Assembly: GCA_051439465.1 (NCBI GenBank)
Contig: JBFRWF010000273.1
Span: forward strand, 46,666 to 110,665
Length of the DNA stretch: 64,000 nucleotides
From: Xenococcaceae cyanobacterium
GTDB taxonomy: Bacteria > Cyanobacteriota > Cyanobacteriia > Cyanobacteriales > JBFRWF01
Reading direction: 5' to 3'
The position numbers were made by a program, and so were the translations under genes. The notes beneath the pieces are model-generated. The model made no database searches. It was not told where the DNA came from and was given only the letters and a program-made list of their open reading frames with translations. This document shows positions 7,378-62,482 of the stretch, piece by piece (positions within the stretch are counted from its first letter, which is position 1; each line of letters begins with the position of its first letter).

Positions 7378-8013
7378 TCAGCTGAAAAGGCTGATTTGAG
7401 TGGAGATAGGTGTTTCGAGCGTTTCTGGGGCTTCAGTCGGGGATGGGGCAGAGTGTTTTTTCCATCTTGGTTTTGCCGTTTCGATGACCTTGCGCCTGAT
7501 GGTACGGGCAAGGGGATAGTAGTCCTGCTGGATTTGCTCGAATTCGATGGGTCGCATATTCAGCATCTCCCAACCATTGCTCAAGTTTTGGGGAAGGCGA
7601 TTATGCTCGATCAGGGTTTCGTTCCAACACCAGGCGTAGATTTGAAATAGGTAATGGGGAAGGGGTGCATCGTAAGTCGCAGGATAAAGAGCAGTCAGCA
7701 CTTCGGTAGGCGTTGCCAAAGAGCCTGGAGACTCGTTTGCTGCATATTCTTCGGAAATCCGTTCAATTCTGCTAGCAATGCAAGCATTAATCAGCCATCC
7801 GGGAACATCCTTAGCCCACTCAGACTGATGCATAATCACAGATCCTCCGACATAACAGACATACGCCAAGGGAAAGCCAGAGATTTGGAGCAGAGTAGCA
7901 AAAACAGCCCTATTACAACCCATCTGAGCCATCACCTTCATCATTTGCAAGCTATTGAGGATGGATTGGTTAGCACTCTTGAGGTCAGGTATTAATTCAA
8001 TTTGCGAGGACAT
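7378..8013 (-). CDS. Hypothetical protein (211 aa) ending in a clamp-binding-type peptide QISLFS
   Basis: Long ORF on the same strand as the polymerase gene and upstream of it. The C-terminal codons caaatcagccttttcagc (7381-7398, minus) read Q-I-S-L-F-S followed by the stop. I recognised no other family. Confidence 0.55.
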   Translation of the reverse strand: MSSQIELIPDLKSANQSILNSLQMMKVMAQMGCNRAVFATLLQISGFPLAYVCYVGGSVIMHQSEWAKDVPGWLINACIASRIERISEEYAANESPGSLATPTEVLTALYPATYDAPLPHYLFQIYAWCWNETLIEHNRLPQNLSNGWEMLNMRPIEFEQIQQDYYPLARTIRRKVIETAKPRWKKHSAPSPTEAPETLETPISTQISLFS

Positions 8014-20282: not shown

Positions 20283-20699
20283 TTAAGATGTAGGCGTTCT
20301 CTGCTGTTCGACGTACTGCTTGATGATGGAGATTAGCGCACCACCGCAAGAGCCAGCAAAATAGCTAGGTGACCAGAGGACACCTTTGTAGAAACGGTCA
20401 TGCAATTGGGAAAATTCCTTTCTCAGTAACCTACTTGAAACCCCTTTAAGACTATTGACCAGCTTGGATACTGCCACCTTGGGGGGGTAGTTGACGAGTA
20501 AATGTACGTGATCGTCCTCTCCGTTCATCTCTACTAACTCAGCTTCAAAGTTGTTGCATACATCATCGAATATAGTCCTAAGTCTGTTGATAGCATTGGC
20601 GTTTAATACTTTTCTTCTATACTTGGTAACAAAGACCAAATGAACATGAAGATTAAAAGTACAGTGCCTACCAGTTCTTAGCTCTTGCATTCTCTTCAT
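20283..20699 (-). CDS. tnpA: IS200/IS605 Y1 (HUH) transposase TnpA
   Basis: HVHLVFVTKYRRKVL, HUH motif DHVHLLV, and the catalytic Tyr region WSPSYFAGSCGGA. Confidence 0.9.
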   Translation of the reverse strand: MKRMQELRTGRHCTFNLHVHLVFVTKYRRKVLNANAINRLRTIFDDVCNNFEAELVEMNGEDDHVHLLVNYPPKVAVSKLVNSLKGVSSRLLRKEFSQLHDRFYKGVLWSPSYFAGSCGGALISIIKQYVEQQRTPTS

Positions 20700-20719
20700 A
20701 GACCAAGTATAATCAGACT

Positions 20720-21928
20720 ATGATATTAAGGCAAGCATTCAAATTTAGACTAGAACCCAAAGCCAGAGAGCGACAACTGTTCGCTCAGTTTGCAGGCTGC
20801 TGTCGTTTGGTCTGGAACAAAGCCCTTGCTATTCAAAAAGAATTGCTAGAGGAAGGGGAATTGTGCTTGTCCTATAGCAAGCTGGCAGCAGAATTGAAGG
20901 ATTGGAAGCACGAAGAGGGCTTAACTTTTCTGGGAGAGTGTCACTCTCAACCACTGCAACAGACATTAATGAACCTAGATCGAGCATTAAAGGAAGCCTT
21001 CAATAAGACAAACCCAAAACAATTTCCTCGCTTCAAGAAGAAGGGACAGCGCGATTCATTTCGCTATCCGCAAGGATTCAAGATAGACGAACCAAATAGC
21101 AGGGTGTATCTGCCTAAAATTGGTTGGGTGAGATACCGCAAGAGTCAGTCAATTGTTGGAAGTCCTAAAAATGTTACGGTCTCGAAACGAGGAGATCATT
21201 GGTATGTCTCAATCCAGACCGAAGCAGAGGTAGAACAGCCGAAAACCGAAGCTACCTCAATGGTAGGATGTGATTTAGGTATTGCTCGATTCCTCACTCT
21301 TTCAACGGGTGAATATTTTGAGCCTCTTAACAGCTTTAAAAAGCTAGAGAAGAAGCTTGCCAGACTACAGCGAACCTTAGCCAGAAGGATTAAGGGGTCG
21401 GAAAACTGGAAGAAGACCAAGGGCAAAATCACCAATCTCCATATCCGCATAGCTAATGCTCGAAAGGACTACCTACATAAACTCTCGCACACTTTGAGCA
21501 AAAACCACGCTGTAGTAGTGCTAGAGGATTTAAAGGTAGCCAACATGAGCAAGTCAGCTAAGGGAACGGTGGAAGAACCAGGAACAAACGTTAAAGCCAA
21601 GTCAGGACTAAACAAGTCCATCCTCGATCAAGGGTGGTACGAGTTTAAACGTCAGCTTGGCTATAAACTAGAATGGCTTGGGGGAATGCTGGTATTGGTC
21701 AACCCCAAAAACACTTCTCGGTGCTGTCCTCACTGTGGGCATACGTCGGGAGAAAACCGCAAGACTCAAGCGAGTTTTGTCTGTGTTGAGTGTGGCTACA
21801 AGGAAAATGCAGACTTTGTAGGCGCACTTAATGTGCTAAGGGCGGGACACGCCCGGTTAGCCTGTGGAGATATAGACCTCGTTGTCGGGCTAGCCCAGGA
21901 ATCTGCTCAAATGACTATGCTTGCATAG
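20720..21928 (+). CDS. tnpB: TnpB (IS605 OrfB) RNA-guided endonuclease
   Basis: 402 aa. RuvC-like blocks (GCDLGI, VVVLEDLKV) and zinc ribbon CPHCGH...CVECGY. C-terminal ALNVLRAGHARLACG. Confidence 0.9.
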   Translation: MILRQAFKFRLEPKARERQLFAQFAGCCRLVWNKALAIQKELLEEGELCLSYSKLAAELKDWKHEEGLTFLGECHSQPLQQTLMNLDRALKEAFNKTNPKQFPRFKKKGQRDSFRYPQGFKIDEPNSRVYLPKIGWVRYRKSQSIVGSPKNVTVSKRGDHWYVSIQTEAEVEQPKTEATSMVGCDLGIARFLTLSTGEYFEPLNSFKKLEKKLARLQRTLARRIKGSENWKKTKGKITNLHIRIANARKDYLHKLSHTLSKNHAVVVLEDLKVANMSKSAKGTVEEPGTNVKAKSGLNKSILDQGWYEFKRQLGYKLEWLGGMLVLVNPKNTSRCCPHCGHTSGENRKTQASFVCVECGYKENADFVGALNVLRAGHARLACGDIDLVVGLAQESAQMTMLA

Positions 21929-22001: not shown

Positions 22002-22904
22002 GTGGAAGTGGAAGAAGCAACAGCGGTTTGGCTGACACTTGGCGACAGTAAAATTCAGGCATACCAGCTTACCCAAAACAACCAGCGGCTCATTGTGTTC
22101 ACCCACAGGCTGATGGCGGACCCCGTGGGAAGAAGCAAAGGCACGGCGCAAAAGTTTTGTAAGACCCACGAACAAGAATTGCCGCCCACCATCACAGCCA
22201 TCGTCCCAGACAAGCCGCGCCCCGTAGCTCTCTCCTCCTGGGAAGCAGCCCAGGCTTACTGGCAATCTCAAGCCGCAAAGGGCAATGCTCAAGCCCAAGC
22301 CCTGGCAGAAGCCGCCGCTGTTACTGCTTCGAGCTCTCTCCACCTCCAGGTAATAACTGAAGCTTCCGCATCCGACACGCCCTATCCCAAGAATATCGAA
22401 GCTGCACTCGCCGCTCTGCCTTCCGGAGAAAGCCTGCCGGGCACCGCAGAAGTCAAGGCGCTCGAAGAGGGTCTAAACCTCATTTCCCGCTGGCTCATCG
22501 AAGCCGGACTGGATAAAACATCCATTGCTCAATGGAAGCTGAACTGCCTTGGAAAGCGCTTCCCTGCTTTGGAAGTGGAAGTAGGAGAGGCCCAGAAACT
22601 CCTGGGTCAGCACGACACCTCTCCCAGCGGCATGATTGTCTCCCAGGTAGCCGAGAAAGTATCGGAAGAATTAGACCGGGCAATATCTCCTGCCCAGGTC
22701 AACTCGGCCCTACACGACCTCTCACTCCAGGAATTTGCCAAATCAGGCTCCAGGGAAAGACGCTTGACCCCCAAAGGTCAAGCCTACGGCAGGGCAGTTT
22801 TAGTCACGAGCCGGAGTAATGCCTGGAGTGGAGCACAAATTCGTTGGTTCGATAATGTCGTGCCACTGTTATGTGATTATTTTCTTGACATCTCCCCCGC
22901 TTGA
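22002..22904 (+). CDS. Hypothetical protein (GTG start; alternative ATG about 37 codons in)
   Basis: 300-aa ORF starting right after the IS605 right end. Ala/Gln-rich and visibly more GC-rich than its neighbours. Its last codons overlap a truncated IS right-end copy. Confidence 0.4.
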   Translation: MEVEEATAVWLTLGDSKIQAYQLTQNNQRLIVFTHRLMADPVGRSKGTAQKFCKTHEQELPPTITAIVPDKPRPVALSSWEAAQAYWQSQAAKGNAQAQALAEAAAVTASSSLHLQVITEASASDTPYPKNIEAALAALPSGESLPGTAEVKALEEGLNLISRWLIEAGLDKTSIAQWKLNCLGKRFPALEVEVGEAQKLLGQHDTSPSGMIVSQVAEKVSEELDRAISPAQVNSALHDLSLQEFAKSGSRERRLTPKGQAYGRAVLVTSRSNAWSGAQIRWFDNVVPLLCDYFLDISPA

Positions 22905-26261: not shown

Positions 26262-27257
26262 CTACCTACACTGCAGCCGCGACGGTTTCATCAATTGCAC
26301 AATCCTTAACAGAGCTGGTAGTATTGTTTCTGTTCTTGCTCCATTTTTGAGTGACACTTCCAAGTCGAGAAGTAAGGTCAGTGCAACACAGAGCGATCCG
26401 CTTGCGGATCTGCCTTCGGCAGCACGCACTGAAACATCCTTCACCTCACTCCGCAGAAAATACATGCGTTTGGGATTCCCCACCCCGCACAGTTGGGCAA
26501 TCTTTGAGTCCGATTTCAGTCCAGAAGCAATTGCCGCTTTAACCCACAGCCAAGTCCGGAACTGGGTAATCAAGGTAGCAACGATGACCAGAGGAAATTC
26601 AGCTTGTGCCAGCAATTCGTTAAGGAGACTGGCTACCAGCGCGGCTTTGCCTTGACGCACAGCTTCAGCCAATTGGAGATTGGTTTGGGTGGTGCAGGGA
26701 ACTAACGCCTCAGCTTGAGCCTGAGTAACTCGATTACCATTGGCGTAGACAGCCAGCTTGGTGAGTTCCCTGTAGCTGCGGGCGGTATCATTACCAATGG
26801 CTTCTGCCAGGTAATTCACCACCTCGGGGGTGAGTCGCAGATTCAATTCCTTAGCTTGAGCTTTAATCGAACCAGCAATCAAGTCCGTGCGCCAGGGAGG
26901 AATGAGAGTAAATTCCATTAGCTTGCCATGTTTGAGCAAGTGCTTGGATACCTTCAGGCGCTTTTCAATAGAAGGCGCAACAAAGACTAAATGGGTGGTT
27001 TCTGGCAGCCGGGAGAGGCATTGGAGGATAGATAGCCCAGTTTCTCCAAATTGCCTGAAGTCGCAGTTTTCCACAACCACCAGCTTTTGCCCATCCCCAA
27101 ACACCCCAGTCAAAGCACAAACCATTGCTGACTCTAGTTGTTCCGAAGGGAAGCGATGGAAATTGAAATCGCGCCACCGAGGGTTAGTTTTTGCCTTGAA
27201 AGCGGTGATTTCCCGTTCAATGGCATGTTGGTCATTGCCGACGAGTATGGTAATCAT
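26262..27257 (-). CDS. holA: DNA polymerase III delta subunit
   Basis: EFTLIPPWRTDLIAGSIKAQAKELNLRLTPEVVNYLAEAIGNDTARSYRELTKL closely parallels cyanobacterial HolA (EFSLIPPWKTD...LAEAVGNDTR). Its ATG overlaps the dnaX stop (ATGA at 27254-27257). Confidence 0.85.
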   Translation of the reverse strand: MITILVGNDQHAIEREITAFKAKTNPRWRDFNFHRFPSEQLESAMVCALTGVFGDGQKLVVVENCDFRQFGETGLSILQCLSRLPETTHLVFVAPSIEKRLKVSKHLLKHGKLMEFTLIPPWRTDLIAGSIKAQAKELNLRLTPEVVNYLAEAIGNDTARSYRELTKLAVYANGNRVTQAQAEALVPCTTQTNLQLAEAVRQGKAALVASLLNELLAQAEFPLVIVATLITQFRTWLWVKAAIASGLKSDSKIAQLCGVGNPKRMYFLRSEVKDVSVRAAEGRSASGSLCVALTLLLDLEVSLKNGARTETILPALLRIVQLMKPSRLQCR

Positions 27258-28633
27258 GGCTTCTGGGAGATAGCGACAGTAACGGAATAGCCCAAAGTCC
27301 GTGCCATCATCCGTCCGACTAATTTGCTATTGGCTTTAAACTTAGCAGCGTACTTGGGTTCGACACTCAGCACGGCTTGTTCTTGGTCGAGTGCTGTCAA
27401 TTTGGCACGAGAGAGCAAACCTCGGTTAGTCGGTTTTGCCGCTTCTACCACCGAGGTCCAAATGGCATTCAAATCTTTGCTAGTTTCAGGGGTTGAACCA
27501 TTGAGTGCCGGGTTACGACCGTTGCCCTGCTGTGGTTTGGGGATAACAGAAGTTTCGCTCATCAGGTTCAGCAAACACACTTCCATCCAAACAGCAGCAT
27601 TGATGGTTGTCCTCAATTGGGATTCTGACTTTTGCAGTTGGCTAAAGGCAGCATCAATGGTTTCAAACTCCATGCCGCTGGCAAGTTTACGCAAATGTTG
27701 GTAACTCACACCACCCCTTATCAGATTTTGGCTTTTGGGTGCCGACTTGACGATGAGTAAATCTCGATAAACCTGGAGGAGACTGCTGAGGATGAGTTTA
27801 GGAGTTTTGCCACTGTCTACCAGTCCCCGTGCTGATTGCAGCATTCCCAATACATCTTTGGCGCTAATCGCCTTGAAGATGTTAACCAGGTCAGATTCCG
27901 GTACAGCACCAGAGACCTCAATGACGTGCGCTGGTGTAATCTCTTCATTGAGCAGGGACAACTGAGACAGTAATTGCAGGGCATCCCGCAAACCCCCGTC
28001 AACAGTGCGGGCAATGGCGAAGAGGGCTTCATCGGTAATCGCAATGGACTCTTGTTCTGCCACCAACTGTAATTGGTTGACAATAGCATCGAGAGAAAGG
28101 GCTTTGAAGTTGAAGGTTTGACAGCGTGAGATAATCGTGGGCAGGACTTTGTGGAGTTCTGTGGTACAGAGAATGAAGACCACATGAGCCGGAGGTTCCT
28201 CGATAGCTTTGAGGAGGCAGTTCTGACTCGCCTTGGTCAATTGGTGACATTCGTCTACAATAAAGACTCGGTAGCGACTTTGGGTTGGGGCAAAGTTGCT
28301 GTGTTCAATCAGTTCGCGGGCATCGTCTACGCCATTGTGAGAGGCTGCGTCAATCTCGCTCACGTCCAAATTAGTGCTTTTCTCGATAGTTTTGCAGGAT
28401 TGACACTTGCCGCAGGGAGAGGCGGTGGGATGTTTGGACTCTAAGCAATTGAGGGATTTGGCGAGAATGCGGGCAGTGGAGGTTTTCCCCGTGCCTCTGG
28501 GTCCGGTAAAGAGGTATGCTGGAGCAATCTGCCCTTGAGTCACGGCATTGGTTAGGGCAGTTTGGATATAGTCTTGACCGACCAGTTCAGCGAAGGTTCG
28601 GGGTCGATATTTGAGATGTAAGGCTTGGTGCAT
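27254..28633 (-). CDS. dnaX: DNA polymerase III gamma/tau subunit (clamp loader ATPase)
   Basis: From ATG 28633: MHQALHLKYRPRTFAELVGQDYI, Walker A GPRGTGKTS, zinc module CGKCQSC, Walker B FIVDECHQL, SRC motif IISRCQ. Confidence 0.9.
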   Translation of the reverse strand: MHQALHLKYRPRTFAELVGQDYIQTALTNAVTQGQIAPAYLFTGPRGTGKTSTARILAKSLNCLESKHPTASPCGKCQSCKTIEKSTNLDVSEIDAASHNGVDDARELIEHSNFAPTQSRYRVFIVDECHQLTKASQNCLLKAIEEPPAHVVFILCTTELHKVLPTIISRCQTFNFKALSLDAIVNQLQLVAEQESIAITDEALFAIARTVDGGLRDALQLLSQLSLLNEEITPAHVIEVSGAVPESDLVNIFKAISAKDVLGMLQSARGLVDSGKTPKLILSSLLQVYRDLLIVKSAPKSQNLIRGGVSYQHLRKLASGMEFETIDAAFSQLQKSESQLRTTINAAVWMEVCLLNLMSETSVIPKPQQGNGRNPALNGSTPETSKDLNAIWTSVVEAAKPTNRGLLSRAKLTALDQEQAVLSVEPKYAAKFKANSKLVGRMMARTLGYSVTVAISQKP

Positions 28634-28734
28634 AATTGTTCGTGCTTTGTTCTCCCCTCCTCTCCCGTTAGGGAGAAACAGGAGATTTGCGCCTTGCCCT
28701 CTCCGATGGAGATAATCTAGCTCTCCCTCCCAAG

Positions 28735-28762
28735 CCAAAATCCAAAATCTACAATCTAAAAT
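28735..28762. repeat. Heptameric STRR-like tandem repeat (CCAAAAT CCAAAAT CTACAAT CTAAAAT)
   Basis: Read directly. It lies in the divergent region between dnaX and the Rpn-like gene. Confidence 0.7.
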
Positions 28763-28765
28763 TCC

Positions 28766-29710
28766 ATGGCCAATCAACGCGATGATTACGACAATCCTTG
28801 GAAAGTCGCGCTCGCTATCTATTTCAAATCCTCGATCGCCTTCTTTTTCCCGGATATTTATGAAGGAATTGACTGGACAAAACCCCACGAGTTTCTCGAT
28901 ACCGAACTCCAACAGGTGATGCGCTCTGATGAGATTGGGCAGCGAGAAGCGGATAAGTTAGTCAAGGTTTGGCTGCTAAATGGAGAGGAAACTTGGGTGT
29001 TAATTCATCTAGAAGTACAGAGCCAATACCAGTCCAATTTTGCGGAGCGTATGTATGTTTATAATAGCCGCATTTTTGGCATTTACCGGAAGAAGGTCGT
29101 CAGTTTAGCAATTTTAGCCGATTCCGAAAAGTCTTGGCGACCAACCGAGTATAGATATGAAATCTGGGGTTGTCGGGTCTTATTGCAGTTTCCAATGGTG
29201 AAATTGCTAGATTATCAAGATAAGTGGTCCGAACTGGAGAAAAGTACCAATCCCTTTGCGGCGATTGTCATGGCGCACTTGAAAACTCAGGCAACGCGCA
29301 AAGCCCCCGAACAGCGTTTAGAGTGGAAGGTGAGTATTGTCAAGAGTTTGTATCAAAAGGGATACAATCGAGGAGAAATTCGGGAGTTATTCCGAGTTAT
29401 TGACTGGATGATGACACTTCCTAGAAGTTGGTCGCGGGGATTTCGAGAAGAAATCAGGCGTTATGAGGAGGAAAATCAAATGCGTTATGTCACCAGTATT
29501 GAGAGTTTAGCTCGTGAAGATGATATCATCGACATCCTAGAAACTCGGTTTGAAGACGTACCTAGTGAGTTAGTGGAGATGCTCGATCGGATCAATGATG
29601 CCTCCCAATTGAAAATGCTTTTGAAGCGGGCGGTTACTATTGGCTCTTTGTCGGAGTTTCGGGAGTTAATTGAGCCGTTGAGTTCCGAATCGGGAGAGGA
29701 TGGTGTTTGA
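28766..29710 (+). CDS. Rpn-family recombination-promoting nuclease / putative transposase (PD-(D/E)XK, cyanobacterial type with DUF4351-like C-terminus)
   Basis: N-terminus MANQRDDYDNPWKVALAIYFKSSIAFFFPDIYEGIDW...LIHLEVQS is typical of this family. Confidence 0.8.
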   Translation: MANQRDDYDNPWKVALAIYFKSSIAFFFPDIYEGIDWTKPHEFLDTELQQVMRSDEIGQREADKLVKVWLLNGEETWVLIHLEVQSQYQSNFAERMYVYNSRIFGIYRKKVVSLAILADSEKSWRPTEYRYEIWGCRVLLQFPMVKLLDYQDKWSELEKSTNPFAAIVMAHLKTQATRKAPEQRLEWKVSIVKSLYQKGYNRGEIRELFRVIDWMMTLPRSWSRGFREEIRRYEEENQMRYVTSIESLAREDDIIDILETRFEDVPSELVEMLDRINDASQLKMLLKRAVTIGSLSEFRELIEPLSSESGEDGV

Positions 29711-29811
29711 ATTGGGTTTATGGAACGATCGCTTTTCATTGTCTATCAAAACTAAAAGTTAGCTCGTTACGCTCTGGCTCATGAATATAGAAGATTCCTT
29801 CAAGCCATTCC

Positions 29812-29866
29812 CCCACCCCACACCCATGGTTAGTTGTTTGTAGGCAAAGGTATGGGTTGGGGTGGG
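29812..29866. repeat. Long imperfect inverted repeat between the convergent Rpn-like and dnaN genes (possible bidirectional terminator)
   Basis: CCCACCCCACACCCAT (29812-29827) pairs with ATGGGTTGGGGTGGG (29852-29866), giving 15 bp with one bulge and a 24-nt loop. No U-tract follows. Confidence 0.35.
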
Positions 29867-29931
29867 TAGCTTTCCAATCCCTTCTTCACTACTGATCTGC
29901 GTCGCCATCAAGTCTATCGGGTCCGGCTGGG

Positions 29932-31275
29932 TTACTGAAGCGGTGCGAGGATATACTCAGCCTCAATCGGTGCTTCACCTTGGGCGGGCGTTCCGTAAGG
30001 GGTAATCAGAGTCGGCGTATGAGCAGAGGCGATTTGGACTCGGATATCGGAACTCGAAATGGCTCTAACCACATCGATAAAGTAACGCACATCGAATTTG
30101 AGGGTTAAGTCGTCACCGTTAATTTGAGCATCGAGGCTGACTTTGCCATTGCCAACCTCTTTATGCTCGATGGCTAGATGTATCTTTTGGTTAGTGCCAT
30201 CCAGTTCCACAGAAATAGCTTTCACTGATTTATCGCTCAGTACCGCCAATCGCTCTAATGCTTTGAGCAGTGTTAATCTCTCGGTAATCAGTTGTCGGCA
30301 ATATTGGTCAAACCAAGGCTGGATGAGGGCGGCACAATCGGGGTACTGTCCTTCAATCGTGCGCGTCACTAGGCACTTTTCATTCCACTCGAAGACAACT
30401 GTGCCACTGTTGTCGTCGCCTTTGTAGTAAAGGGTCACTTGGTCAGTGGGATTCAGATTCCTTTCTAGTTCCCGCAACACCTTGACGGGAACTGTAAACT
30501 GAGTGGCTTCTGCCAAGGATTGCTGTTTGCTCGTTTCTGAACTTGCCATCAACACCATGCGGTGACCATCCGTCGTCCAGGTTTTCAAGGTATCAAGTCC
30601 CCGTTCGACATCAGGTTCGAGCATGAAGTGAGAACTATTCAGGATGCGTTTGGTGTCATCGTTACTGGTAGCAAAGAGTGAACCTTTGAGTTGGGCGATG
30701 AGGAGAGAAGCAGGCAGGGTAATGAGTTTGCTTTTGACTGTCGGCAGTGAGGGAAACTCGTTAGCCACCATCCCCATGATTTCAAAGCGCTCTGTGTCGG
30801 CGGTAAAGAGGGCTGCGGTGAGGGCAGGTTCTCCGCCGTCGTCCTTCTCGTTAATTTGGCACTCAATAGTGAGTTGGCCGCGAGGGAACTTTCTGACCAT
30901 TTGTTGTAAGATAGCGGCGGGCAAGGTCATGCGTCCGCTTTGGGTTACGGTGCCCTCAAAGCTGGCTTGCATCCCAAATTCAAGATTGTAGGTGGAGAGG
31001 TGCAGTAGTTGTTGAGTTTCATCCGCGACTACCAGGACATTGTTGAGGATGGCATGGGTGGGATTGTGGGGAACTGCTTTGCTGATAAAGTCGAGATAAT
31101 CGTTGAGGGTAGTCTGGTCGCAAGTGACTTTGAGTTCTGGTCTGGATTGAGATTCTGGTTTTTGGGAAACCGTTTTTTGGGTTGCCTTAGACGTGCGCTT
31201 TGTGGTTGATTTGGTTGTCTTTTTCGAGGTTGTTTTGCGTTTGGTGGTTGTGGATGAGCTGATAGTTTTTGGCAT
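29932..31275 (-). CDS. dnaN: DNA polymerase III beta sliding clamp with a ~47-aa Lys/Thr/Ser-rich N-terminal extension
   Basis: After the extension: ELKVTCDQTTLNDYLDFISKAVPHNPTHAILNNVLVVADETQQLLHLSTYNLEFG..., the canonical DnaN N-terminus. There is no internal Met near the canonical start. Confidence 0.9.
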   Translation of the reverse strand: MPKTISSSTTTKRKTTSKKTTKSTTKRTSKATQKTVSQKPESQSRPELKVTCDQTTLNDYLDFISKAVPHNPTHAILNNVLVVADETQQLLHLSTYNLEFGMQASFEGTVTQSGRMTLPAAILQQMVRKFPRGQLTIECQINEKDDGGEPALTAALFTADTERFEIMGMVANEFPSLPTVKSKLITLPASLLIAQLKGSLFATSNDDTKRILNSSHFMLEPDVERGLDTLKTWTTDGHRMVLMASSETSKQQSLAEATQFTVPVKVLRELERNLNPTDQVTLYYKGDDNSGTVVFEWNEKCLVTRTIEGQYPDCAALIQPWFDQYCRQLITERLTLLKALERLAVLSDKSVKAISVELDGTNQKIHLAIEHKEVGNGKVSLDAQINGDDLTLKFDVRYFIDVVRAISSSDIRVQIASAHTPTLITPYGTPAQGEAPIEAEYILAPLQ

Positions 31276-31396: not shown

Positions 31397-31738
31397 TTAC
31401 ACTACAGCATACCCAGTGTATTGTCTAACCTCAGGTGAACGAAAACCCAAAACAATGTTGTCTTTAGGAATCCCCGCCTTTTCTAATTCCCCTGCAATGC
31501 CATCTTCTGTCCCATCCCGTTGAATCCACGCCTTGCCGTCAATCAGGTCAATGTGGACAATACAGCCGTGAACTCTCCGGTCGTCATCCCAACCAACATT
31601 GACCAGTAAATAGCGGTCATTTACCCGATCAAAAACAACTTCTGTCTCAATCTCGCCGTAGGCATAAGGAACTTGAGCATACTCAGTAAGGGTATTTTCA
31701 ATAATCTGCCGATAGGTATCAAGCTTCAAGGTATCCAT
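31397..31738 (-). CDS. xisI: XisI (fdxN-element excision controlling factor family)
   Basis: MDTLKLDTYRQIIENTLTEYAQVPYAYGEIETEVVFDRVNDRYLLVNVGWDDDRRVHGCIVHIDLIDGKAWIQRDGTE matches XisI along its length. Confidence 0.9.
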   Translation of the reverse strand: MDTLKLDTYRQIIENTLTEYAQVPYAYGEIETEVVFDRVNDRYLLVNVGWDDDRRVHGCIVHIDLIDGKAWIQRDGTEDGIAGELEKAGIPKDNIVLGFRSPEVRQYTGYAVV

Positions 31739-32160
31739 TTGACGATTACCTCCTTGCGCGGGTCAAACGCTATCAAATTAAGACGATCATTTTTCAAGAG
31801 TAGTTTTCCAATTGGTTCTTCAAACAAATCATTGTAAATACTCTTAGGAACAGCCAGATATAAAATCCGCTCTGGTTCTCGTTCAGCTAAAACATCGTGA
31901 TACAAAATATACTGACCCAAGGCTTTCTCCAGGTCATCGATATCCGATTTGCCAACAAAACTTTTGACTTCAACAGCTATCTTGCGTTCTTCTCTTTCAG
32001 CAGCAACAAGTTGCATTGCGCCCAAGTCAACATAGAGATCCTTCGCGCCCCACTCAAGTTTCAAAGGGTCATGGGTGATTGTCCATCCATCTTTAATCAG
32101 GGCATTCTTGACGCTGTTGTGATAAATATCTCTGGCTGGCACATCAGCTATTACAAACAT
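31726..32160 (-). CDS. xisH: XisH (endonuclease-fold, fdxN-element excision controlling factor family)
   Basis: PARDIYHNSVKNALIKDGWTITHDPLKLEWGAKDLYVDLGA...AAEREERKIAVEVKSF matches XisH. It overlaps xisI by 13 nt. Confidence 0.9.
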   Translation of the reverse strand: MFVIADVPARDIYHNSVKNALIKDGWTITHDPLKLEWGAKDLYVDLGAMQLVAAEREERKIAVEVKSFVGKSDIDDLEKALGQYILYHDVLAEREPERILYLAVPKSIYNDLFEEPIGKLLLKNDRLNLIAFDPRKEVIVKWIP

Positions 32161-32464: not shown

Positions 32465-33853
32465 TCAGATAAACAAAACCCGTTTCCGAAAACGACTTGC
32501 CCCCACATACCAAAGTCGATTGTGTTCTTTGAGCTTCTGGAAGTAACTTTCATCATCCCCAACAAACAATCGAGTCAACAAATCATTCCCATCCACTGCC
32601 CCTTCATCAAAAGTACTGCCCTGTGAATTATGAATGGTGAGGGCAAAACAGTTCCACACCTCAGCAAAGACATCATCTTTGAACCAGTAGTATTTACGCC
32701 ACAAAAAAGCATTGCGTTTGGCACTTTGGAGCTTCCGTTCTAATTCCACCTCATATCGCTTTTGTTCCGAGGAATGCAGCACAAAGATTTGCCTGACTAA
32801 TCCCTCATCAGTGACCACTTTAAGTTGCCAGACTTGGTAGCCATAGTGTCGATTTAGTGCCACTTCCAGAACTGTTACTTCCGTCGAAGTTGGCAAAATC
32901 ACCGTCTTCCCATCCGGGGCAACGACAGGCTTTTTGGTAATCAGCCGTTCACTGGGGATAAAGCGAGGTGCATCTTTGCCGTAAACCAGTTGTCGAATCA
33001 CCTGGTTGTAATACTCCACTCGTTTGTTAGTCCAGCAGAGAATGCGGAAGCAATCAGGATTACTGGCAAACTGCTGTTTAATTTTCTTGGCCGCGTACTT
33101 GAGTAGGGTTGCCTCTTTGACCTTGAATGCCCCGTTAGACTTATCATTGGCTTGGTACTTAGAGCGAGGTTGAAAGAATTGGTTCTTGCTCTTAACCAAT
33201 TGACGTGCCTGGGTAACAAAGTTTAGCACCGGGCTTTCTCCCGTTTGTCTGACAACTTGGGTTAGGACGGCACGGTTTTTGACCTTAAAAGAAGGCGAAC
33301 GACCCTCTCCCACCGGATTAAGTTGTGCCGGGTCCCCCATGAGGATCAGCTTGCGTTGGCTCAATAGTGACCCCTCGAAACAGCGTTCAATCCATGCCCA
33401 GAGTTCAACCCCCACCATTGAGCATTCGTCTAGGAAGATAACGTCATACAGATGGATGCTGGTAGAACTGGTTTGTTTTAGGACTTTTTCTTGTCCTCTG
33501 GTGACCATCCCTAATCCTAAGAGTTGGTGAATGGTCATGCTCTGAACTGTATCAATGCCATTTTCGGCTGCCATTTTCTTCAAGATGCCGACAGCTTTAT
33601 TCGTAGGAGCAGTCAAAACAACTCGTTTGCCCTCAGCAATCAGTTCTTTAACAATCTGAAAGACTATGGTTGATTTGCCAGTTCCGGCATAGCCACAGAG
33701 TAGAAAGAAGGTTAAGGGCGAGAGCAGGAATGCCCTTAACTTATCAAGCGCTTTTTGTTGCTGAGGCTTGAGGGTGAAAGGCAGACCATCGATAACTTGA
33801 TTTACTGTTTTTTCGTTTCGGTCGAGGAAAGTTGTAATCATGGTTTTTGTCAA
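32465..33853 (-). CDS. SF1B DNA helicase (RecD/Dda/Pif1-like)
   Basis: Walker A CGYAGTGKST, TAPTNKA, Walker B IFLDECSMV, GDPAQLNPV, and C-terminal ALTIHNSQGSTFD ... YVGASR. Confidence 0.85.
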   Translation of the reverse strand: MTKTMITTFLDRNEKTVNQVIDGLPFTLKPQQQKALDKLRAFLLSPLTFFLLCGYAGTGKSTIVFQIVKELIAEGKRVVLTAPTNKAVGILKKMAAENGIDTVQSMTIHQLLGLGMVTRGQEKVLKQTSSTSIHLYDVIFLDECSMVGVELWAWIERCFEGSLLSQRKLILMGDPAQLNPVGEGRSPSFKVKNRAVLTQVVRQTGESPVLNFVTQARQLVKSKNQFFQPRSKYQANDKSNGAFKVKEATLLKYAAKKIKQQFASNPDCFRILCWTNKRVEYYNQVIRQLVYGKDAPRFIPSERLITKKPVVAPDGKTVILPTSTEVTVLEVALNRHYGYQVWQLKVVTDEGLVRQIFVLHSSEQKRYEVELERKLQSAKRNAFLWRKYYWFKDDVFAEVWNCFALTIHNSQGSTFDEGAVDGNDLLTRLFVGDDESYFQKLKEHNRLWYVGASRFRKRVLFI

Positions 33854-35669: not shown

Positions 35670-36457
35670 TAAACCAACTCCTCCAAGCCTTTGACAATCT
35701 GGTTAAGGATAGTAACAGCTTTGTGTTTGCGGTCGTAGACAGAGAGCGGCACCCGTTCTTCTGCTGCATCGGCAAAGCTGGTAGACCAGGGGATAGGCGG
35801 ATAAATCGGACCCAGGCTGGCAAACCGCTCCTTGATGGCTTGAAGGGTTCGGTCGTCCTGGCTGCGACGGGCATCAAACAAAGTGGGGACAAAACCGGCG
35901 ATTTTCAGGTGACGATTGGCTCGGCGTTTGACCCGTGCCACTGTTGTGAGCAACAAATTGGTTCCTGTGAACGCTTTGAATTGAGTCTGAAGGGGAATGA
36001 GAATATGGGTCGCGGCAACAAGAGAGATATACGAGAGCAGTCCCAGACTGGGAGGACAGTCAATCAAAATGAAATCGTAATCTTCTTTGATTGGCTCTAA
36101 GGCATCTTTCAATCTGAGGTCTCGCATATCCGCATTGACCAGGGACAATTCAGCAGCGGATAAATTGATATTTGATGGGGCTAAATCTAAACCATGAATT
36201 CCTTTTTGGATCGGTAGGGAGACAATGACTTCCGAATCTTCCGAATCAATTAGCACCTGATAAATTGTTGAACTTAGTTCTTCTGGAGTCAAGCCCATAA
36301 AAGTCGTGAGTGAGGCTTGGGGATCCATATCGACCAAGAGGACACGATGACCCCGTGTTTGCAATTGGTAGCCCAAATTTTGGGTTAGGGTGCTTTTGCC
36401 TACTCCGCCGGCTTGATTGAATAGGGCTAATAAAACGCCGCTTCTTTGTTGTTCCAC
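35669..36457 (-). CDS. parA: ParA partition ATPase
   Basis: Deviant Walker A FNQAGGVGKST, VLLVDMDPQ, ILIDCPPS. GTG start. Confidence 0.9.
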   Translation of the reverse strand: MEQQRSGVLLALFNQAGGVGKSTLTQNLGYQLQTRGHRVLLVDMDPQASLTTFMGLTPEELSSTIYQVLIDSEDSEVIVSLPIQKGIHGLDLAPSNINLSAAELSLVNADMRDLRLKDALEPIKEDYDFILIDCPPSLGLLSYISLVAATHILIPLQTQFKAFTGTNLLLTTVARVKRRANRHLKIAGFVPTLFDARRSQDDRTLQAIKERFASLGPIYPPIPWSTSFADAAEERVPLSVYDRKHKAVTILNQIVKGLEELV

Positions 36458-36563
36458 AATAAACTCCTGAACTCAACAATAAAGTCAACCCTTATTTCTT
36501 GACCGATGCCCTAGCTCTAGAGATTCCGCTTCTGCCAGTTCACGACTTTATTGTTTGAGTACA

Positions 36564-36600
36564 TTCTTTGTCTTTCCATAATTTCTTTGTCTTTACATAA
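36564..36600. promoter_or_regulatory. Two tandem 18-bp direct repeats (TTCTTTGTCTTTCCATAA / TTCTTTGTCTTTACATAA) upstream of parA
   Basis: Read directly at 36564-36581 and 36583-36600, about 110-140 bp upstream of the parA start. Candidate par operator or centromere-like site. Confidence 0.45.
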
Positions 36601-36680
36601 TAAAGTTGTATCCTGAACATTTTTCGTTCCTTTTTTTGCGCTCACTGGGGGAAACGACTGTCTCCCCCCTGTCAGTAGGC

Positions 36681-38804: not shown

Positions 38805-38869
38805 GTAGTTACGATATAATGTAGTTACGGCATAAATTCAATATTAGTATAATAACAGTCGTAAATACG
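38805..38869. repeat. AT-rich region with GTAGTTACG direct repeats and three TATAAT-like boxes upstream of the initiator-like gene
   Basis: GTAGTTACG occurs at 38805-38813 and 38821-38829, with the variant GTCGTAAATACG at 38858-38869. GATATAAT, AGTATAAT and GCTATAAT are interleaved. Confidence 0.5.
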
Positions 38870-38951
38870 CTATAATTACTTGCATCATAACGGTGTATTC
38901 AAACCAAGCCGAAAACCCCCTGGTCGTCTACTAGACCTATGAGGTGTAGTA

Positions 38952-40220
38952 ATGCTCCCGCAAATACTAACAATTTCCCACCTTCCCGCCACGCCTTACA
39001 CCATACTGCGGCTCGATTACCTGATTATTTGCCAAGACGACTACTGTGCCGCCAAAATACTGTCCCTATTTGAAGCTTGGTCTGAGTCTAAGCGAGACGC
39101 AGTCGAACAAGCCAAATACCACAATAAAGCGGCTGCCAAAGAAGGGCTCGAGCCAACTCACGACGAAACAACTTGGCTTTACAACACCCTTGAGAACATC
39201 AGGCAACGGCTCTTGGAAGAATACAGTGTCAAAACTATCAACAAAGCCTTGAAAACCTTAGTAGACCTGGGTTTTCTCCAAACTCGATTTAACCCTAACC
39301 ACAAATGGGACAGGACGAAGCAGTACCAGTTTCAGACTGAAGCCGTCCAAACCGCTATTTACCAGATTACCCAAGAGCAGCTTGAGCGATATATTAGCCC
39401 GAAGGCTGAAACCCTTGATTTTCTGCATTTGGTAAATTTACCAAATGCATCTGGTAAAAATACCAAATCGAAAGCGCAAATTTACCAAATCGAAAGCGCA
39501 GATTTACCAAATCGATCTGGTAAAAATACCAAAGCAATACCAAAGAGTCATAACAAAGAGTCAATCAAAGAAAACACACCCATCGCTGCCCCTTCGCCCC
39601 AGCACCCCACCCAAAGTGTGTGTGTAGCAAAAAATGATGAAAAGGTTGAAAAGGTCAAAGCGATTGAAAGCAGCGAAGAAGAAGTTAGCCAAGATGAGTC
39701 ATTTACTGCCCAAGACGAAAAAACCAACTCAACACCTTTGGCTGAAGTCACAGCTTTAGATCGAAGTTCGGCTGTATCGCTAAATAACAATAAAACTTTA
39801 AAGTCTCAGAAAAGGCGACAACTCTCGGAGTTCCAGCAATGGAAGCAGCAGATAGAGCGAATCGAGTGGGAGGCTTTCATTAACTGGAAATCAGAGCAAG
39901 CCCCTGCTGATATCCGTGACCGACTGGGGTGGGCATACAACACCCTCAAGGCAGATTTAGAACGAGCCCAGCTTTCTTTGTCGAGTTTTCGACAAGAAAA
40001 AGCGCAGTCTAGGCAACCATCTGGCTCTCGCACGAAGCCCGATGGGACTCCCAACTTTGAAGCTTGGGAGATGGAGCAACACATTGAGGTGGCAAAGCAA
40101 TACCTGGCAAACAGTGTTGCTTTCCTGCGAGAGCAGTCCTGGCACAAAGACTGGGTGGAATTTGTGAACGTCACTTTCCCCAACTTATTTACCGAGGTTA
40201 ATCAGGAGGGACTGTCATGA
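38952..40220 (+). CDS. Putative replication initiator (winged-helix-like N-terminal domain, low-complexity linker, C-terminal domain), translationally coupled to dnaB
   Basis: ATGA overlap with dnaB at 40217-40220. The N-terminal ...SVKTINKALKTLVDLGFLQTRFNPNHKWDRTKQYQF looks like a wHTH. An iteron-like array lies inside the linker-coding region. I recognised no specific Rep family. Confidence 0.55.
   Translation: MLPQILTISHLPATPYTILRLDYLIICQDDYCAAKILSLFEAWSESKRDAVEQAKYHNKAAAKEGLEPTHDETTWLYNTLENIRQRLLEEYSVKTINKALKTLVDLGFLQTRFNPNHKWDRTKQYQFQTEAVQTAIYQITQEQLERYISPKAETLDFLHLVNLPNASGKNTKSKAQIYQIESADLPNRSGKNTKAIPKSHNKESIKENTPIAAPSPQHPTQSVCVAKNDEKVEKVKAIESSEEEVSQDESFTAQDEKTNSTPLAEVTALDRSSAVSLNNNKTLKSQKRRQLSEFQQWKQQIERIEWEAFINWKSEQAPADIRDRLGWAYNTLKADLERAQLSLSSFRQEKAQSRQPSGSRTKPDGTPNFEAWEMEQHIEVAKQYLANSVAFLREQSWHKDWVEFVNVTFPNLFTEVNQEGLS
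39424..39535. repeat. Dense array of direct and inverted repeats built on a TTTACCAAAT core, inside the initiator-like ORF
   Basis: Perfect 26-bp palindrome TGCATTTGGTAAATTTACCAAATGCA (39424-39449). Inverted repeat TTTACCA-N7-TGGTAAA occurs twice (39438-39458 and 39504-39524). 22-bp tandem A(A)T(T)TACCAAATCGAAAGCGCA lies at 39457-39500. A 34-bp repeat lies at 39436 and 39502. About 8 core copies fall within 112 bp. Confidence 0.8.
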
Positions 40221-42037
40221 TTAATAGCGATCGCCTTCCTCCTGAAAATATCGAGGCTGAAGCAGCCATCTTAGGGGGAATTTTACTCGACCCAAGAGCG
40301 ATGGAGGAGGTAGTTGACATCCTGACTCCAGACACATTTTATGTCAGCGCTCACGGAGAAATCTATCGAGCAGCTTTGACGTTGTTCCGTGAAGGGAAGC
40401 CAACGGATTTAATGATGGTCACCAGCTATCTAGCAGACCATGAGAAGCTCGAGGGAGTTGGAGGAACTAGCAGACTAGCCACTCTTGTACACCGAACGGT
40501 ATCTGCGATTAACATAGACCGTTATGCTGCCTTAGTCGTTGATAAGTATCTGCGGCGGCAGCTCATTAAAGAAGCCAATGAGATTGCGGCATCTGCTTAC
40601 GACAACTCCAGAGACTTTGAAGAAGTTATTGACGAAGCCGAACAGAGAATTTTTACAGTTGCCCAACATCGTCCGACTCAAGAAGTCGAACCCGTTGGAG
40701 ATATTTTGATTCGTAACTTCAACGAGATTGAGCAGTACGCTAACGGTGTTGTTCAGCCGGGACTAAATACCGGACTCACTGAAATTGACCGCATCACTGG
40801 CGGCTTGCAGCGGCAAGACCTGATTATCGTCGGTGGCAGACCGAGCACTGGAAAAACGGCTCTCTCGACTAATCTGGCATACAACATTGCGCTGCTGCAC
40901 AATCTTCCCGTGATTATCTTCAGTTTGGAGATGTCCAAGGAGCAGTTGACCTATCGTCTGCTATCTCCTTTGGCTCGAATTGAATATGAGCGACTCAAAG
41001 CCGGACGCATATCGCTAGGTGAGCTGACTCCCCTGACACTGGCGATTGGCCAACTCTCTGAGCTACCGATCTTCATAGACGACACTTCCAATCCTCCCGT
41101 GCTCGAAATCCGGGCTAAAGTGCGACGGATAGCAGCTCAGCACGGTCAGTTGGGATTAGTGCTGATTGATTATCTGCAACTGATGAGTGGTTCGGACTCA
41201 TCGAACCGAGTCCAAGAGTTAGATAGGATTAGCCGGGAGCTCAAACAACTGGCTAAAGACTTCAATGTGCCCGTAATGTGTTTATCGCAGCTCCATCGGG
41301 GGGTGGAGGGGAGGCAAGACAAACATCCCATGATGTCTGACCTCAGAGACTGCCTTGCGGGTGATGCTCTTGTTACCAATGCAGAAACAGGTGTTCGGGT
41401 CTCTGTTCGAGAAATAGTTGAAAAGGGGCTGCGTTTCAATGTATGGGCTATCAACAGTGAGTGGAAGTTAGTAAGCCGTCCGATTGTAGATGCGTGGGCA
41501 GTAGGCACTCAGACAGTCTACAAAGTGACGACGCGAACTGGTCGAACTCTTCGATGTTCTGGTGGACATCGCCTGATGACTCATGATGGATGGCGACAGC
41601 TACGCAATTTATGTGTGGGGGATGTTGTAGCTTTGCCACGGTGTTATCCTGCACCGAATCAGGGGCATGGGGTCACTTTTGCCTTTTGCCTTCCGCTCAG
41701 CGGTGACCCAATACTTCAGCGGCGGGCAAGCTCTGATTTGTTGTGGGATGAGATTACTTCCATTTCCGCAGACAGTGAAGAGATGGTATACGACCTGACC
41801 GTCGAAGAACTTCACAATTTCTGCGTTGACGGTTTTGTTACCCACAACAGCGGTGCCATTGAGCAAGCAGCAGATTTAATTGCGCTTTTGTATCGCGAAG
41901 ATTATTACAAACCTGACTCCCCAGAGCGAGGAATTGTTGAGGTTAACTTTGCCAAGCACCGAAATGGACGGACTGGCATCGTCAAGCTTTTGTTCGAGAA
42001 AGAATATTCCCGTTTTCTTGACTTGTACTACCGATAA
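40217..42037 (+). CDS. dnaB: Replicative DNA helicase DnaB containing a mini-intein
   Basis: N-terminal PPENIEAEAAILGGILLD, Walker A GGRPSTGKTAL, SLEMS, LIDYLQLM. The spliced junction would read MMSDLRD/SGAIEQAADL, the canonical DnaB motif. Confidence 0.9.
   Translation: MINSDRLPPENIEAEAAILGGILLDPRAMEEVVDILTPDTFYVSAHGEIYRAALTLFREGKPTDLMMVTSYLADHEKLEGVGGTSRLATLVHRTVSAINIDRYAALVVDKYLRRQLIKEANEIAASAYDNSRDFEEVIDEAEQRIFTVAQHRPTQEVEPVGDILIRNFNEIEQYANGVVQPGLNTGLTEIDRITGGLQRQDLIIVGGRPSTGKTALSTNLAYNIALLHNLPVIIFSLEMSKEQLTYRLLSPLARIEYERLKAGRISLGELTPLTLAIGQLSELPIFIDDTSNPPVLEIRAKVRRIAAQHGQLGLVLIDYLQLMSGSDSSNRVQELDRISRELKQLAKDFNVPVMCLSQLHRGVEGRQDKHPMMSDLRDCLAGDALVTNAETGVRVSVREIVEKGLRFNVWAINSEWKLVSRPIVDAWAVGTQTVYKVTTRTGRTLRCSGGHRLMTHDGWRQLRNLCVGDVVALPRCYPAPNQGHGVTFAFCLPLSGDPILQRRASSDLLWDEITSISADSEEMVYDLTVEELHNFCVDGFVTHNSGAIEQAADLIALLYREDYYKPDSPERGIVEVNFAKHRNGRTGIVKLLFEKEYSRFLDLYYR
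41351..41848 (+). other. Mini-intein (166 aa, no homing-endonuclease domain) within dnaB
   Basis: It starts CLAGDALV (block A; Cys at codon 379, tgc at 41351) and ends ...LHNFCVDGFVTHN, followed by a Ser +1 nucleophile. The flanks rebuild the SDLR(D/E)SG.IEQ.AD helicase motif. Confidence 0.85.
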
Positions 42038-42510: not shown

Positions 42511-42540
42511 TGTCTTATGTACAGCGTTGTACATAAGACA
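42511..42540. repeat. Palindrome A: TGTCTTATGTACA-gcgt-TGTACATAAGACA
   Basis: Perfect 13-bp arms with a 4-nt spacer, 18 nt upstream of ATG 42558. Confidence 0.85.
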
Positions 42541-42557
42541 AAAATGGGGGACGAACG

Positions 42558-42911: not shown

Positions 42912-42943
42912 TGTCTTATGTACAAAACCATGTACATAAGACA
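42912..42943. repeat. Palindrome B: TGTCTTATGTACA-aaacca-TGTACATAAGACA
   Basis: Same 13-bp arms as palindrome A with a 6-nt spacer. It starts 4 nt after the stop of the zinc-ribbon ORF. Confidence 0.85.
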
Positions 42944-42973
42944 AGTGAGAGGCGTATGCGGCTTAACTGGTAA

Positions 42974-60978: not shown

Positions 60979-61065
60979 CGGAGCTTCCTGCGAGAGAAAT
61001 TCCCTTCTATGGTAAGCTCTCGCTATGCTGCTGGCTTCGGTTCATGAAGGCTTCAAAAACCTCGA

Positions 61066-61716: not shown

Positions 61717-61913
61717 TAATATTCTCCATTGGTGCAGGTGTGGTAGTAGTCTCGGCGCTGTTCAATTTCAGCGAGTGCTGCTAGGGTTTGGGCATCTGAG
61801 GGCTTGGGTTTTACTGGGGTGTGGGTAGTCTTTGAAGGGGTTGATTGAGGTTTTGGCATGATTTTAATGCTGTAAGGTTGATTGTAGGCGTGAGGATATG
61901 GGCGATAGCCCAA
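61716..61913 (-). CDS. Small hypothetical protein translationally coupled to the Gp157-like gene
   Basis: 65-aa ORF whose stop overlaps the next ATG (TAATG at 61716). Confidence 0.45.
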   Translation of the reverse strand: MGYRPYPHAYNQPYSIKIMPKPQSTPSKTTHTPVKPKPSDAQTLAALAEIEQRRDYYHTCTNGEY

Positions 61914-62164: not shown

Positions 62165-62177
62165 AGGATGGCTGAAT

Positions 62178-62480: not shown

Positions 62481-62482
62481 AG

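Follow-up and report, generated by a model that had tools for sequence, protein, structure and literature searches.

A sliding clamp, a two-gene clamp loader and a family-A polymerase with a candidate clamp-binding motif on a conjugative plasmid-like element of a Xenococcaceae cyanobacterium

Plasmids are usually described as borrowing the DNA polymerase III (Pol III) holoenzyme of their host. The DNA analyzed here, a 64-kb stretch (the window) of the 120.5-kb contig JBFRWF010000273.1 from a Xenococcaceae cyanobacterium, carries intact genes for a sliding clamp (dnaN), for a short form of the clamp-loader ATPase (dnaX) and for the clamp-loader delta subunit (holA), together with a proofreading family-A DNA polymerase (PolA) that has a candidate clamp-binding motif. 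Judging from sequence comparisons, we consider it on balance probable that these genes belong to an accessory-replisome module of a family of large cyanobacterial conjugative plasmids, and that the module would support a clamp-dependent PolA replisome with a minimal DnaX-HolA loader. A preliminary description of the same DNA had proposed a private and host-independent replisome. The element-borne clamp and loader are indeed intact and the PolA motif adds to the proposal, but a claim of host independence would go too far, as the window shows no primase, SSB, delta-prime or ligase and the clamp module occurs without PolA or DnaB on some related plasmids.

The presence of dnaX, holA and a full-length dnaN on the element was borne out by family searches, in which the products exceeded the cut-offs of TIGR02397, TIGR01128 and TIGR00663, respectively (Table 1). 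For HolA the equivalog model and both Pfam delta domains exceeded their cut-offs. The true start of dnaX was placed at the ATG at 28633, which is preceded by the Shine-Dalgarno-like purine-rich stretch GGAGAGGAGGGGA, and the TTG at 28912, from which the mechanically called open reading frame (ORF) begins, was rejected in its favor. The TGA of dnaX and the ATG of holA share the bases ATGA (27257-27254), and dnaN lies 1.3 kb upstream of the dnaX start and 2.7 kb from the dnaX/holA junction; the overlap and the 2.7-kb distance had both been described before and are read directly in the sequence. The same 4-bp overlap is present in the relatives L002 and L020-L022. From this arrangement dnaX and holA are predicted to be translationally coupled, unlike the one chromosomal dnaX examined, which stands alone.

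The DnaX protein of the window consists of domains I-III followed by a C-terminal DnaA_N-like domain (residues ~385-458, a faint match to PF23007), and it is devoid of the long linker and the acidic ..DDIPF-type tail of chromosomal tau. Against NF011510, which describes the full-length cyanobacterial chromosomal tau, it scored 540.7 bits and thus stayed below the cut-off of 593, with a match that was confined to profile positions 4-373 of 640. The motifs expected of an active loader ATPase are present, namely GPRGTGKTS (Walker A), DECH (Walker B), CTTE (sensor 1), SRC (arginine finger) and GGLRD (sensor 2), along with a Cys4 zinc module formed by C63, C74, C77 and C80. All six elements are conserved to 96-100% across 118 DnaX homologs, which argues that the ATPase is under purifying selection. 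The best 120 homologs measure 439-512 amino acids (aa), with the exception of two intein-containing proteins of 616 and 693 aa; all of those that carry an organism name are cyanobacterial, and the plasmid label is frequent among them. Inteins were noticed in some plasmid-type homologs of both DnaX and PolA (P0100, P0102, P0209). The sequence QLSLL in DnaX (residues 224-228) was considered as a clamp motif and rejected, as it lies within the conserved folded helix of sensor 2.

The clamp itself aligns with solved clamp structures from residue 48 onwards, and the 47 residues in front of this point form an N-terminal extension rich in K, S and T (codons 31135-31275). A basic low-complexity extension of 45-135 aa is found in all plasmid-type clamps with an intact N-terminus (L001-L004 and L006-L011). 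These extensions are rich in K, S, T and P and are not part of standard bacterial clamps; DNA binding, localization and regulation are all possibilities for their role. The window DnaN also carries the TDGHR pocket segment, which as evidence for the binding of clamp motifs is circumstantial. When the three proteins are set against the chromosomal system, i.e. the gamma/tau3-delta-delta' loader of Pol III and the beta clamp, they appear as true homologs that pass the equivalog models and share the Walker A/B, SRC, sensor and zinc motifs, the three-domain clamp and the TDGHR pocket segment. They differ from it in being plasmid-borne, in the absence of a detectable delta-prime, in the reduction of tau to a mini-tau of ~460 aa, and in the clamp extension of 45-135 aa.

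It had been left open whether the element-borne genes might be near-identical copies of the chromosomal ones. In a search of cluster representatives the short plasmid-type DnaX proteins aligned over the full query; long proteins of 650-1240 aa, often intein-bearing, matched over domains I-III only, with ~45-51% identity. Those members of the long group that have an organism name come from cyanobacteria, and one of them, a Microcoleus protein of 793 aa (P0249), is encoded in a chromosomal setting, flanked by rpsO, ruvX, rnhA, bipA and hemF and with no adjoining holA. In a neighbor-joining tree built from domains I-III, short DnaX proteins of the plasmid type and long ones of the chromosomal type form separate clades, and this separation, together with the ~45-51% identity to tau, shows that near-identity does not apply. 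A recent duplication of the host dnaX was therefore rejected, on the grounds of the identity level and the different architecture, and so was the idea that the window genes are the sole chromosomal copies, on the grounds of the plasmid-like backbone and the existence of a distinct chromosomal tau type in cyanobacteria. Of seven long tau proteins of the chromosomal type, six terminate in an acidic sequence (..DDDIPF, ..DDLPF, ..PDVPF, ..NDDF) that can be likened to the C-terminal tail of SSB; the set compared included P0249, P0264, P0257, P0258, P0254 and P0275.

The module is widespread. A tblastn search with DnaX against 72,556 plasmids matched 226 records, many of them cyanobacterial, and in the 14 closest plasmids, which have at least 50% DnaX identity, dnaN was found in every case and the window type of PolA in 11. 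The order SF1B helicase-dnaN-dnaX-holA is conserved across genome loci, where identities to the window amount to 62-66% for full-length DnaX (72-75% for the partial sequences in L010 and L011), 49-69% for HolA, 35-82% for DnaN and 66-85% for the superfamily 1B (SF1B) helicase. HolA orthologs follow directly after dnaX in L001-L009, and the helicase orthologs adjoin dnaN in L001, L003, L004 and L006-L009. The module recurs on dozens of complete cyanobacterial plasmids, on which annotation pipelines already name dnaN, dnaX and holA, so that the arrangement can no longer be regarded as exceptional. In our literature search no paper was found that deals with clamp or clamp-loader genes on cyanobacterial plasmids.

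Copies of the plasmid-type module also occur in chromosomes, and there they are decaying. Among the copies in Anabaena cylindrica PCC 7122 and relatives (L020-L022), that in the A. cylindrica chromosome has a dnaN split by an insertion sequence (IS) with a DDE transposase, has intact dnaX and holA, and adjoins Tn7-like tniQ/transposase and NACHT genes. In the chromosome of Phormidium R1S1 (L011) dnaX and the SF1B helicase gene are truncated and holA is missing.

As had been noted before, neither a delta-prime nor a dnaE gene is visible in the window, and this was upheld by the profile searches and by a search with delta-prime as query; ssb was likewise not detected. With the delta-prime of a Gloeothece verrucosa Cy782202 plasmid as query the sole match in the window was dnaX, and an SSB query gave no match in the window. 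Run against all plasmids, the delta-prime query identified the gene on 25 cyanobacterial plasmids, all of which belong to a distant family that we call type B, and found none on the close family of the window, which we call type A. The type B gene set is dnaN-dnaX-holA-delta-prime, often with ssb in addition, and examples are the plasmids of Gloeothece verrucosa Cy782202, Allocoleopsis pMIC7113.01 and Nostoc PCC 7120 pCC7120beta. Like the window, these plasmids combine dnaN, dnaX and holA with a conjugative backbone that includes DUF5895, Gp157-like and Uma2 genes; unlike the window they encode delta-prime and SSB, and their identity to the window proteins is 38-50% for DnaX and ~25% for DnaN. 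Types A and B reside together in A. cylindrica PCC 7122 and in Aulosira laxa NIES-50, and replicon-specific machinery therefore fits better than an extra dosage of host subunits.

The second component of the proposed replisome is the polymerase. A proofreading family-A enzyme had been recognized from the start, and the assignment held, as the protein passed the NF011539 cut-off and has both the exonuclease and the polymerase domain. It belongs to the apicoplast/Aquificae-like subfamily (NF011539; cluster #8, cd08639), and its closest solved structure is the Plasmodium apicoplast polymerase (299 bits, versus 211 for Klenow), which is a replicative enzyme and in keeping with a capacity of this subfamily to act as replicase. 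The DxE residues of the exonuclease, D54 and E56, do not vary among 66 sequences, and the AlphaFold2 model of the protein is of high confidence (pLDDT 91, pTM 0.90). Family-A polymerases of cluster #8 have been termed 'Hot Spring 1 / Aquificae-like', and Czernecki et al. 2023 (PMC10201439) listed the subfamily of the apicoplast enzyme with an 'unknown role in prokaryotes' and as occurring 'mainly in Aquificae and Cyanobacteria'.

The linker that joins the exonuclease domain of PolA to its polymerase domain has a loop with the pentapeptide QISLF (residues 262-266). The segment falls in a gap of the alignment with the apicoplast polymerase, and it is part of the coil 255-277, which is the internal block with the lowest confidence in the AlphaFold2 model (pLDDT 60). 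Most of 120 homologs have Q[ILMV]SL[LF]P at this position, and the 46%-identical PolA of Allocoleopsis pMIC7113.01 has QLPLF at the site. The strict consensus of beta-clamp-binding peptides, Q[LI][SD]LF, occurs twice in the 15,942 aa encoded by the window, compared to 0.07 expected from shuffled sequences (P=0.002). One copy is that in the PolA linker loop, the other is at the C-terminus of the ORF adjacent to PolA, and both are conserved in the orthologs. The large-plasmid clade of PolA thus differs from the apicoplast enzyme by an extra loop with a motif of the clamp-binding type, and by residing on replicons that encode a clamp and a loader.

The ORF directly upstream of PolA encodes a protein of 211 aa that ends in ...TQISLFS and has no Pfam match. 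Three relatives were obtained from a word-indexed homolog search, and a scan of metagenomes added seven loci, six of which have a complete ortholog. Each of the 10 complete orthologs terminates in Q[IV][ST]LF, preceded by a variable linker of low complexity, and wherever the flanks are sequenced (L027, L030-L033 and L035) the gene is located between a gene for an M23-peptidase-like protein and PolA. The AlphaFold2 model, made from a three-sequence alignment, is poor (pLDDT 50) and consists of a helical body with a disordered C-terminus. We consider this protein a candidate clamp partner. A further ORF of 300 aa may be mentioned as a companion of the module: its product is 36% identical (9e-29) to that of an ORF between dnaX and PolA on pMIC7113.01 (L039, 8688-9605), and a 46% match is encoded right after holA in L004 (a Symploca contig, around position 12668). 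On pMIC7113.01 dnaX, this companion ORF and PolA follow each other without interruption, and holA, ssb and the genes for a helicase and delta-prime are close by.

Related polymerases are also found on much smaller plasmids. On Cyanobacterium aponinum pAL20118a (L037, 12.2 kb) and Geminocystis pGM04 (L038, 17 kb) PolA directly follows a large gene for a DnaB-like helicase, and on such 12-17 kb Cyanobacterium/Geminocystis plasmids these two are almost the sole replication genes, with no clamp genes present. The canonical motif is absent from these PolA proteins: the loop is deleted in C. aponinum, and Geminocystis has the weaker QLTLV. On the 12- and 17-kb plasmids the apicoplast-type PolA is presumably the replicase, and the pair of helicase and polymerase echoes the primase-helicase-polymerase fusion of the apicoplast PREX.

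The backbone in which the module is embedded is that of a conjugative plasmid-like element, to judge from its genes for a type IV secretion system (T4SS), a type IV coupling protein (T4CP) and ParAB. Besides the T4CP, which is unambiguous (PF10412, PF12696 and PF02534), the window encodes a DUF5895 protein, ParA and ParB, a tyrosine recombinase, two-component regulators and IS elements; matches to VirB4/TraC, TrbI and CagX are weak and under the cut-offs, and no relaxase was identified among the proteins of the window. Complete circular plasmids with the same backbone order are assigned to type MPF_T by MOB-suite, and a MOBP relaxase is present on several. A megablast search of PLSDB with the module region gave zero matches, from which it follows that no close DNA relative has been deposited as a plasmid, and in a scan of species-representative genomes the top match was 66-75% identical.

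Put together, the module could work as follows. DnaX and HolA would form a pentameric loader without a plasmid-encoded delta-prime, either by placing a fourth DnaX in the delta-prime position or by borrowing the delta-prime of the host. The former arrangement would correspond to the 4:1 stoichiometry of the phage T4 gp44/gp62 loader and of archaeal RFC, and by analogy such a stoichiometry would explain the missing delta-prime. The loader would then place the plasmid clamp onto primed plasmid DNA, where the clamp would tether the proofreading PolA via its internal QISLF peptide and a second partner, the 211-aa protein, via its C-terminal QISLF, and the plasmid DnaB and/or the SF1B helicase would unwind the DNA. 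The closest parallel would be phage T4, likewise a mobile element with its own clamp, a two-gene loader and a polymerase that docks by a short peptide; in T4 these are gp45, gp44 and gp62 with a family-B polymerase on a virus, in the window DnaN, DnaX and HolA with a family-A polymerase on a conjugative plasmid. The binding of the motifs to the plasmid clamp, the stoichiometry of the loader and the choice between a vegetative and a conjugative role are all deductions from the sequence and should be read as predictions. In its most specific form, as an orthogonal type A replisome with a DnaX4-delta1 loader, a dedicated clamp whose basic tail is disordered and an apicoplast-type PolA made processive by the QISLF loop, the proposal is possible but in our view doubtful.

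Several observations weigh against a clamp-dependent PolA replisome. Three plasmids of the close family, pOSC7112.04, pNPM2 and the TIOX110 plasmid, have dnaN and dnaX without PolA, and pOSC7112.04 is in addition without DnaB and has a split holA. A Pleurocapsales/Stanieria subclade of PolA has NTLL instead of the motif, yet Stanieria NC_019765 has dnaN and dnaX. The clamp-binding motif, being a short linear motif, is a candidate only, the DnaX tree is a neighbor-joining sketch and not a maximum-likelihood tree, and delta-prime, ssb or dnaG may lie in the other ~56 kb of the contig. Finally, the C-terminal domain that the plasmid DnaX shares with chromosomal tau could couple the loader to the alpha subunit of the host Pol III instead. 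The earlier suggestion that a Pol I-type enzyme acts as processive replicase is strengthened by the conserved motif in PolA and weakened by the plasmids that have the clamp module without PolA.

The last of these points leads to an alternative in which the plasmid clamp and loader recruit the host alpha subunit (DnaE), the C-terminal domain of the mini-tau acts as the coupling element, and PolA is left with gap filling, primer removal or repair. It is this explanation that the shared PF23007 domain, the three close-family plasmids that have dnaN, dnaX and holA in the absence of PolA, and the PolA subclade without the motif would favor. Nevertheless we consider it unlikely. A coupling function of the DnaX C-terminal domain is an assumption, and the plasmid DnaX has neither the long linker nor the acidic tail of chromosomal tau. 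PolA accompanies the module on 11 of the 14 close plasmids, and on pMIC7113.01 its gene is contiguous with dnaX. Some other reason would have to be found for the conserved clamp motif of the enzyme, and the strains with PolA-less plasmids hold PolA-encoding sister plasmids, as illustrated by Oscillatoria nigro-viridis PCC 7112, where the PolA-less plasmid occurs alongside three PolA-encoding ones. The module might also be devoted to conjugative DNA synthesis, i.e. to the replacement strand made in the donor or, once transfer has taken place, to the complementary strand, a role that would be compatible with the clamp-dependent PolA replisome. The transfer backbone around the module (T4CP, DUF5895, an M23-like protein, T4SS and two-component regulators) speaks for such a role, as does the partial match of the adjacent SF1B helicase to TraA/TraI relaxase-helicases. 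We nonetheless rate it as quite improbable, since that helicase has no fused relaxase domain, there is no sign of protein transfer or early expression, the module is also present on plasmids classified as non-mobilizable by MOB-suite and in the decayed chromosomal copies, and the window has the ParAB, DnaB and putative initiator genes expected of a vegetative replicon. Least probable by far is a passenger origin, in which duplicates of replication genes of the host were captured recently in a mosaic region and have no function of their own. The IS200/IS605 genes tnpA and tnpB and the xisH/xisI pair in the vicinity could be taken as signs of such a capture, and so could the decaying copies in the A. 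cylindrica and Phormidium R1S1 chromosomes and on pOSC7112.04, but this explanation is largely refuted by the divergence and different architecture of DnaX relative to chromosomal tau, by the retained synteny and the invariant catalytic motifs in more than 100 homologs, by the conserved 4-bp overlap of dnaX and holA, and by the features peculiar to the plasmid lineage, namely the N-terminal tail of the clamp and the clamp motifs in neighboring genes.

The genes that interrupt the module had been described as nuclease genes indicative of recent mosaic assembly. For the 314-aa ORF between dnaN and dnaX, which had been labeled 'Rpn-like', there is not a single Pfam or NCBIfam match even at E<=10, and the label was dropped. 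Orthologs with 70-72% identity occupy the same place in the same orientation in L005-L009 and L011 and are absent from L001-L004, and their conservation is about equal to that of the neighboring genes. The ORF is hence an old recurrent occupant of the six loci and no recent insertion, which leaves xisH/xisI as the only genes peculiar to the window. For that pair the related loci have no xisH and no comparable xisI at the same site, a single weak xisI match (32%) in L002 being all that was found, and the pair is probably a mobile cassette of the toxin/nuclease type that represents a variable insertion outside the conserved module. Family matches confirmed the earlier assignments of xisH/xisI, of the SF1B helicase and of the intein-containing DnaB, whose mini-intein of ~165 aa has no detectable homing-endonuclease domain.

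The 422-aa ORF that precedes dnaB had been labeled 'initiator-like', and this label too found no backing, since no Pfam or NCBIfam family was matched even at permissive thresholds; a function as initiator or helicase loader is putative. Just upstream of it there are three 15-nt direct repeats GTAGTTACGATATAA (38805-38875), and the combination of repeats, ORF and dnaB resembles an iteron or operator with an initiator-helicase operon, which makes it a candidate origin region. Three 19-nt repeats TTCTTTGTCTTTCCATAAT are located upstream of parA (36442-36601) and may be a partition site or an operator. Downstream of dnaB a palindromic pair of 13-14 nt, TGTCTTATGTACA / TGTACATAAGACAA, is present in two copies that are 401 bp apart (42511-42541 and 42912-42944). 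A scan for promoters and terminators between 26000 and 34200 gave fewer sites than in shuffled sequence and was hence uninformative. Among the cargo genes of Table 1, the gene for the Gp157-like protein has a counterpart near the module on Gloeothece Cy782202.

Table 1 Features of the 64-kb window that are discussed in the text, in order of position.
Feature	Positions	Strand	Product length	Family matches and remarks
IS630-like DDE_3 transposase and helix-turn-helix ORF	3131-4399	-		Cargo/mobile gene
PolA, proofreading family-A DNA polymerase	5117-6946	-	609 aa	NF011539, 646.4 bits (cut-off 640); PF01612, PF00476
QISLF, candidate beta-clamp-binding motif	6149-6163	-		PolA residues 262-266, loop between exonuclease and polymerase domains
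Candidate clamp partner	7378-8013	-	211 aa	Directly upstream of PolA; ends ...TQISLFS; motif codons 7384-7398
IS200/IS605 tnpA and tnpB	20283-21928			Mobile genes
Companion ORF	22002-22904	+	300 aa	No Pfam or NCBIfam match
holA, clamp-loader delta subunit	26262-27257	-	331 aa	TIGR01128, 159.5 bits (cut-off 80); PF06144, PF21694
dnaX, short 'mini-tau' clamp-loader ATPase	27254-28633	-	459 aa	TIGR02397, 408.7 bits (cut-off 250)
Conserved ORF	28766-29710	+	314 aa	Between dnaN and dnaX, divergent from dnaX
dnaN, beta sliding clamp	29932-31275	-	447 aa	TIGR00663, 208.3 bits (cut-off 137.65); PF00712, PF02767, PF02768
xisI and xisH	31397-32160	-		Between dnaN and the SF1B helicase gene; PF08869 (4.7e-44), PF08814 (5e-56)
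SF1B (RecD2/Pif1/Dda-like) helicase	32465-33853	-		PF13604, PF13245; partial RecD2 and RecD matches
Unassigned ORF	38952-40220	+	422 aa	Stop overlaps the dnaB start (40217-40220)
DnaB replicative helicase with mini-intein	40217-42037	+		TIGR00665, 548 bits; PF00772, PF03796, PF14890; intein at residues ~379-545
Cytochrome P450, Siphovirus Gp157-like protein, PIN-domain protein	within 59668-62899			Cargo

Mobile elements with their own clamp, loader and polymerase are a known theme, and what the present comparison would add to it are a loader devoid of delta-prime, the mini-tau, the basic clamp tail, the putative clamp-binding loop of an apicoplast-type PolA and a candidate clamp partner. Related modules are present in tractable strains, such as Nostoc PCC 7120 (pCC7120beta, type B) and A. 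cylindrica PCC 7122, so that the question can be put to a direct test. If the proposal is true, these plasmids would contain a natural orthogonal replication system in bacteria with a clamp-dependent replicase of the Pol I type, and a minimal two-gene bacterial clamp loader with which the need for delta-prime could be probed. The family of the 211-aa protein would then be a new clamp partner, and a function in prokaryotes would be assigned to the apicoplast/Aquificae-like PolA subfamily (cluster #8). Such a system would be relevant to plasmid incompatibility, to copy-number biology in polyploid cyanobacteria and to the engineering of orthogonal replicons.

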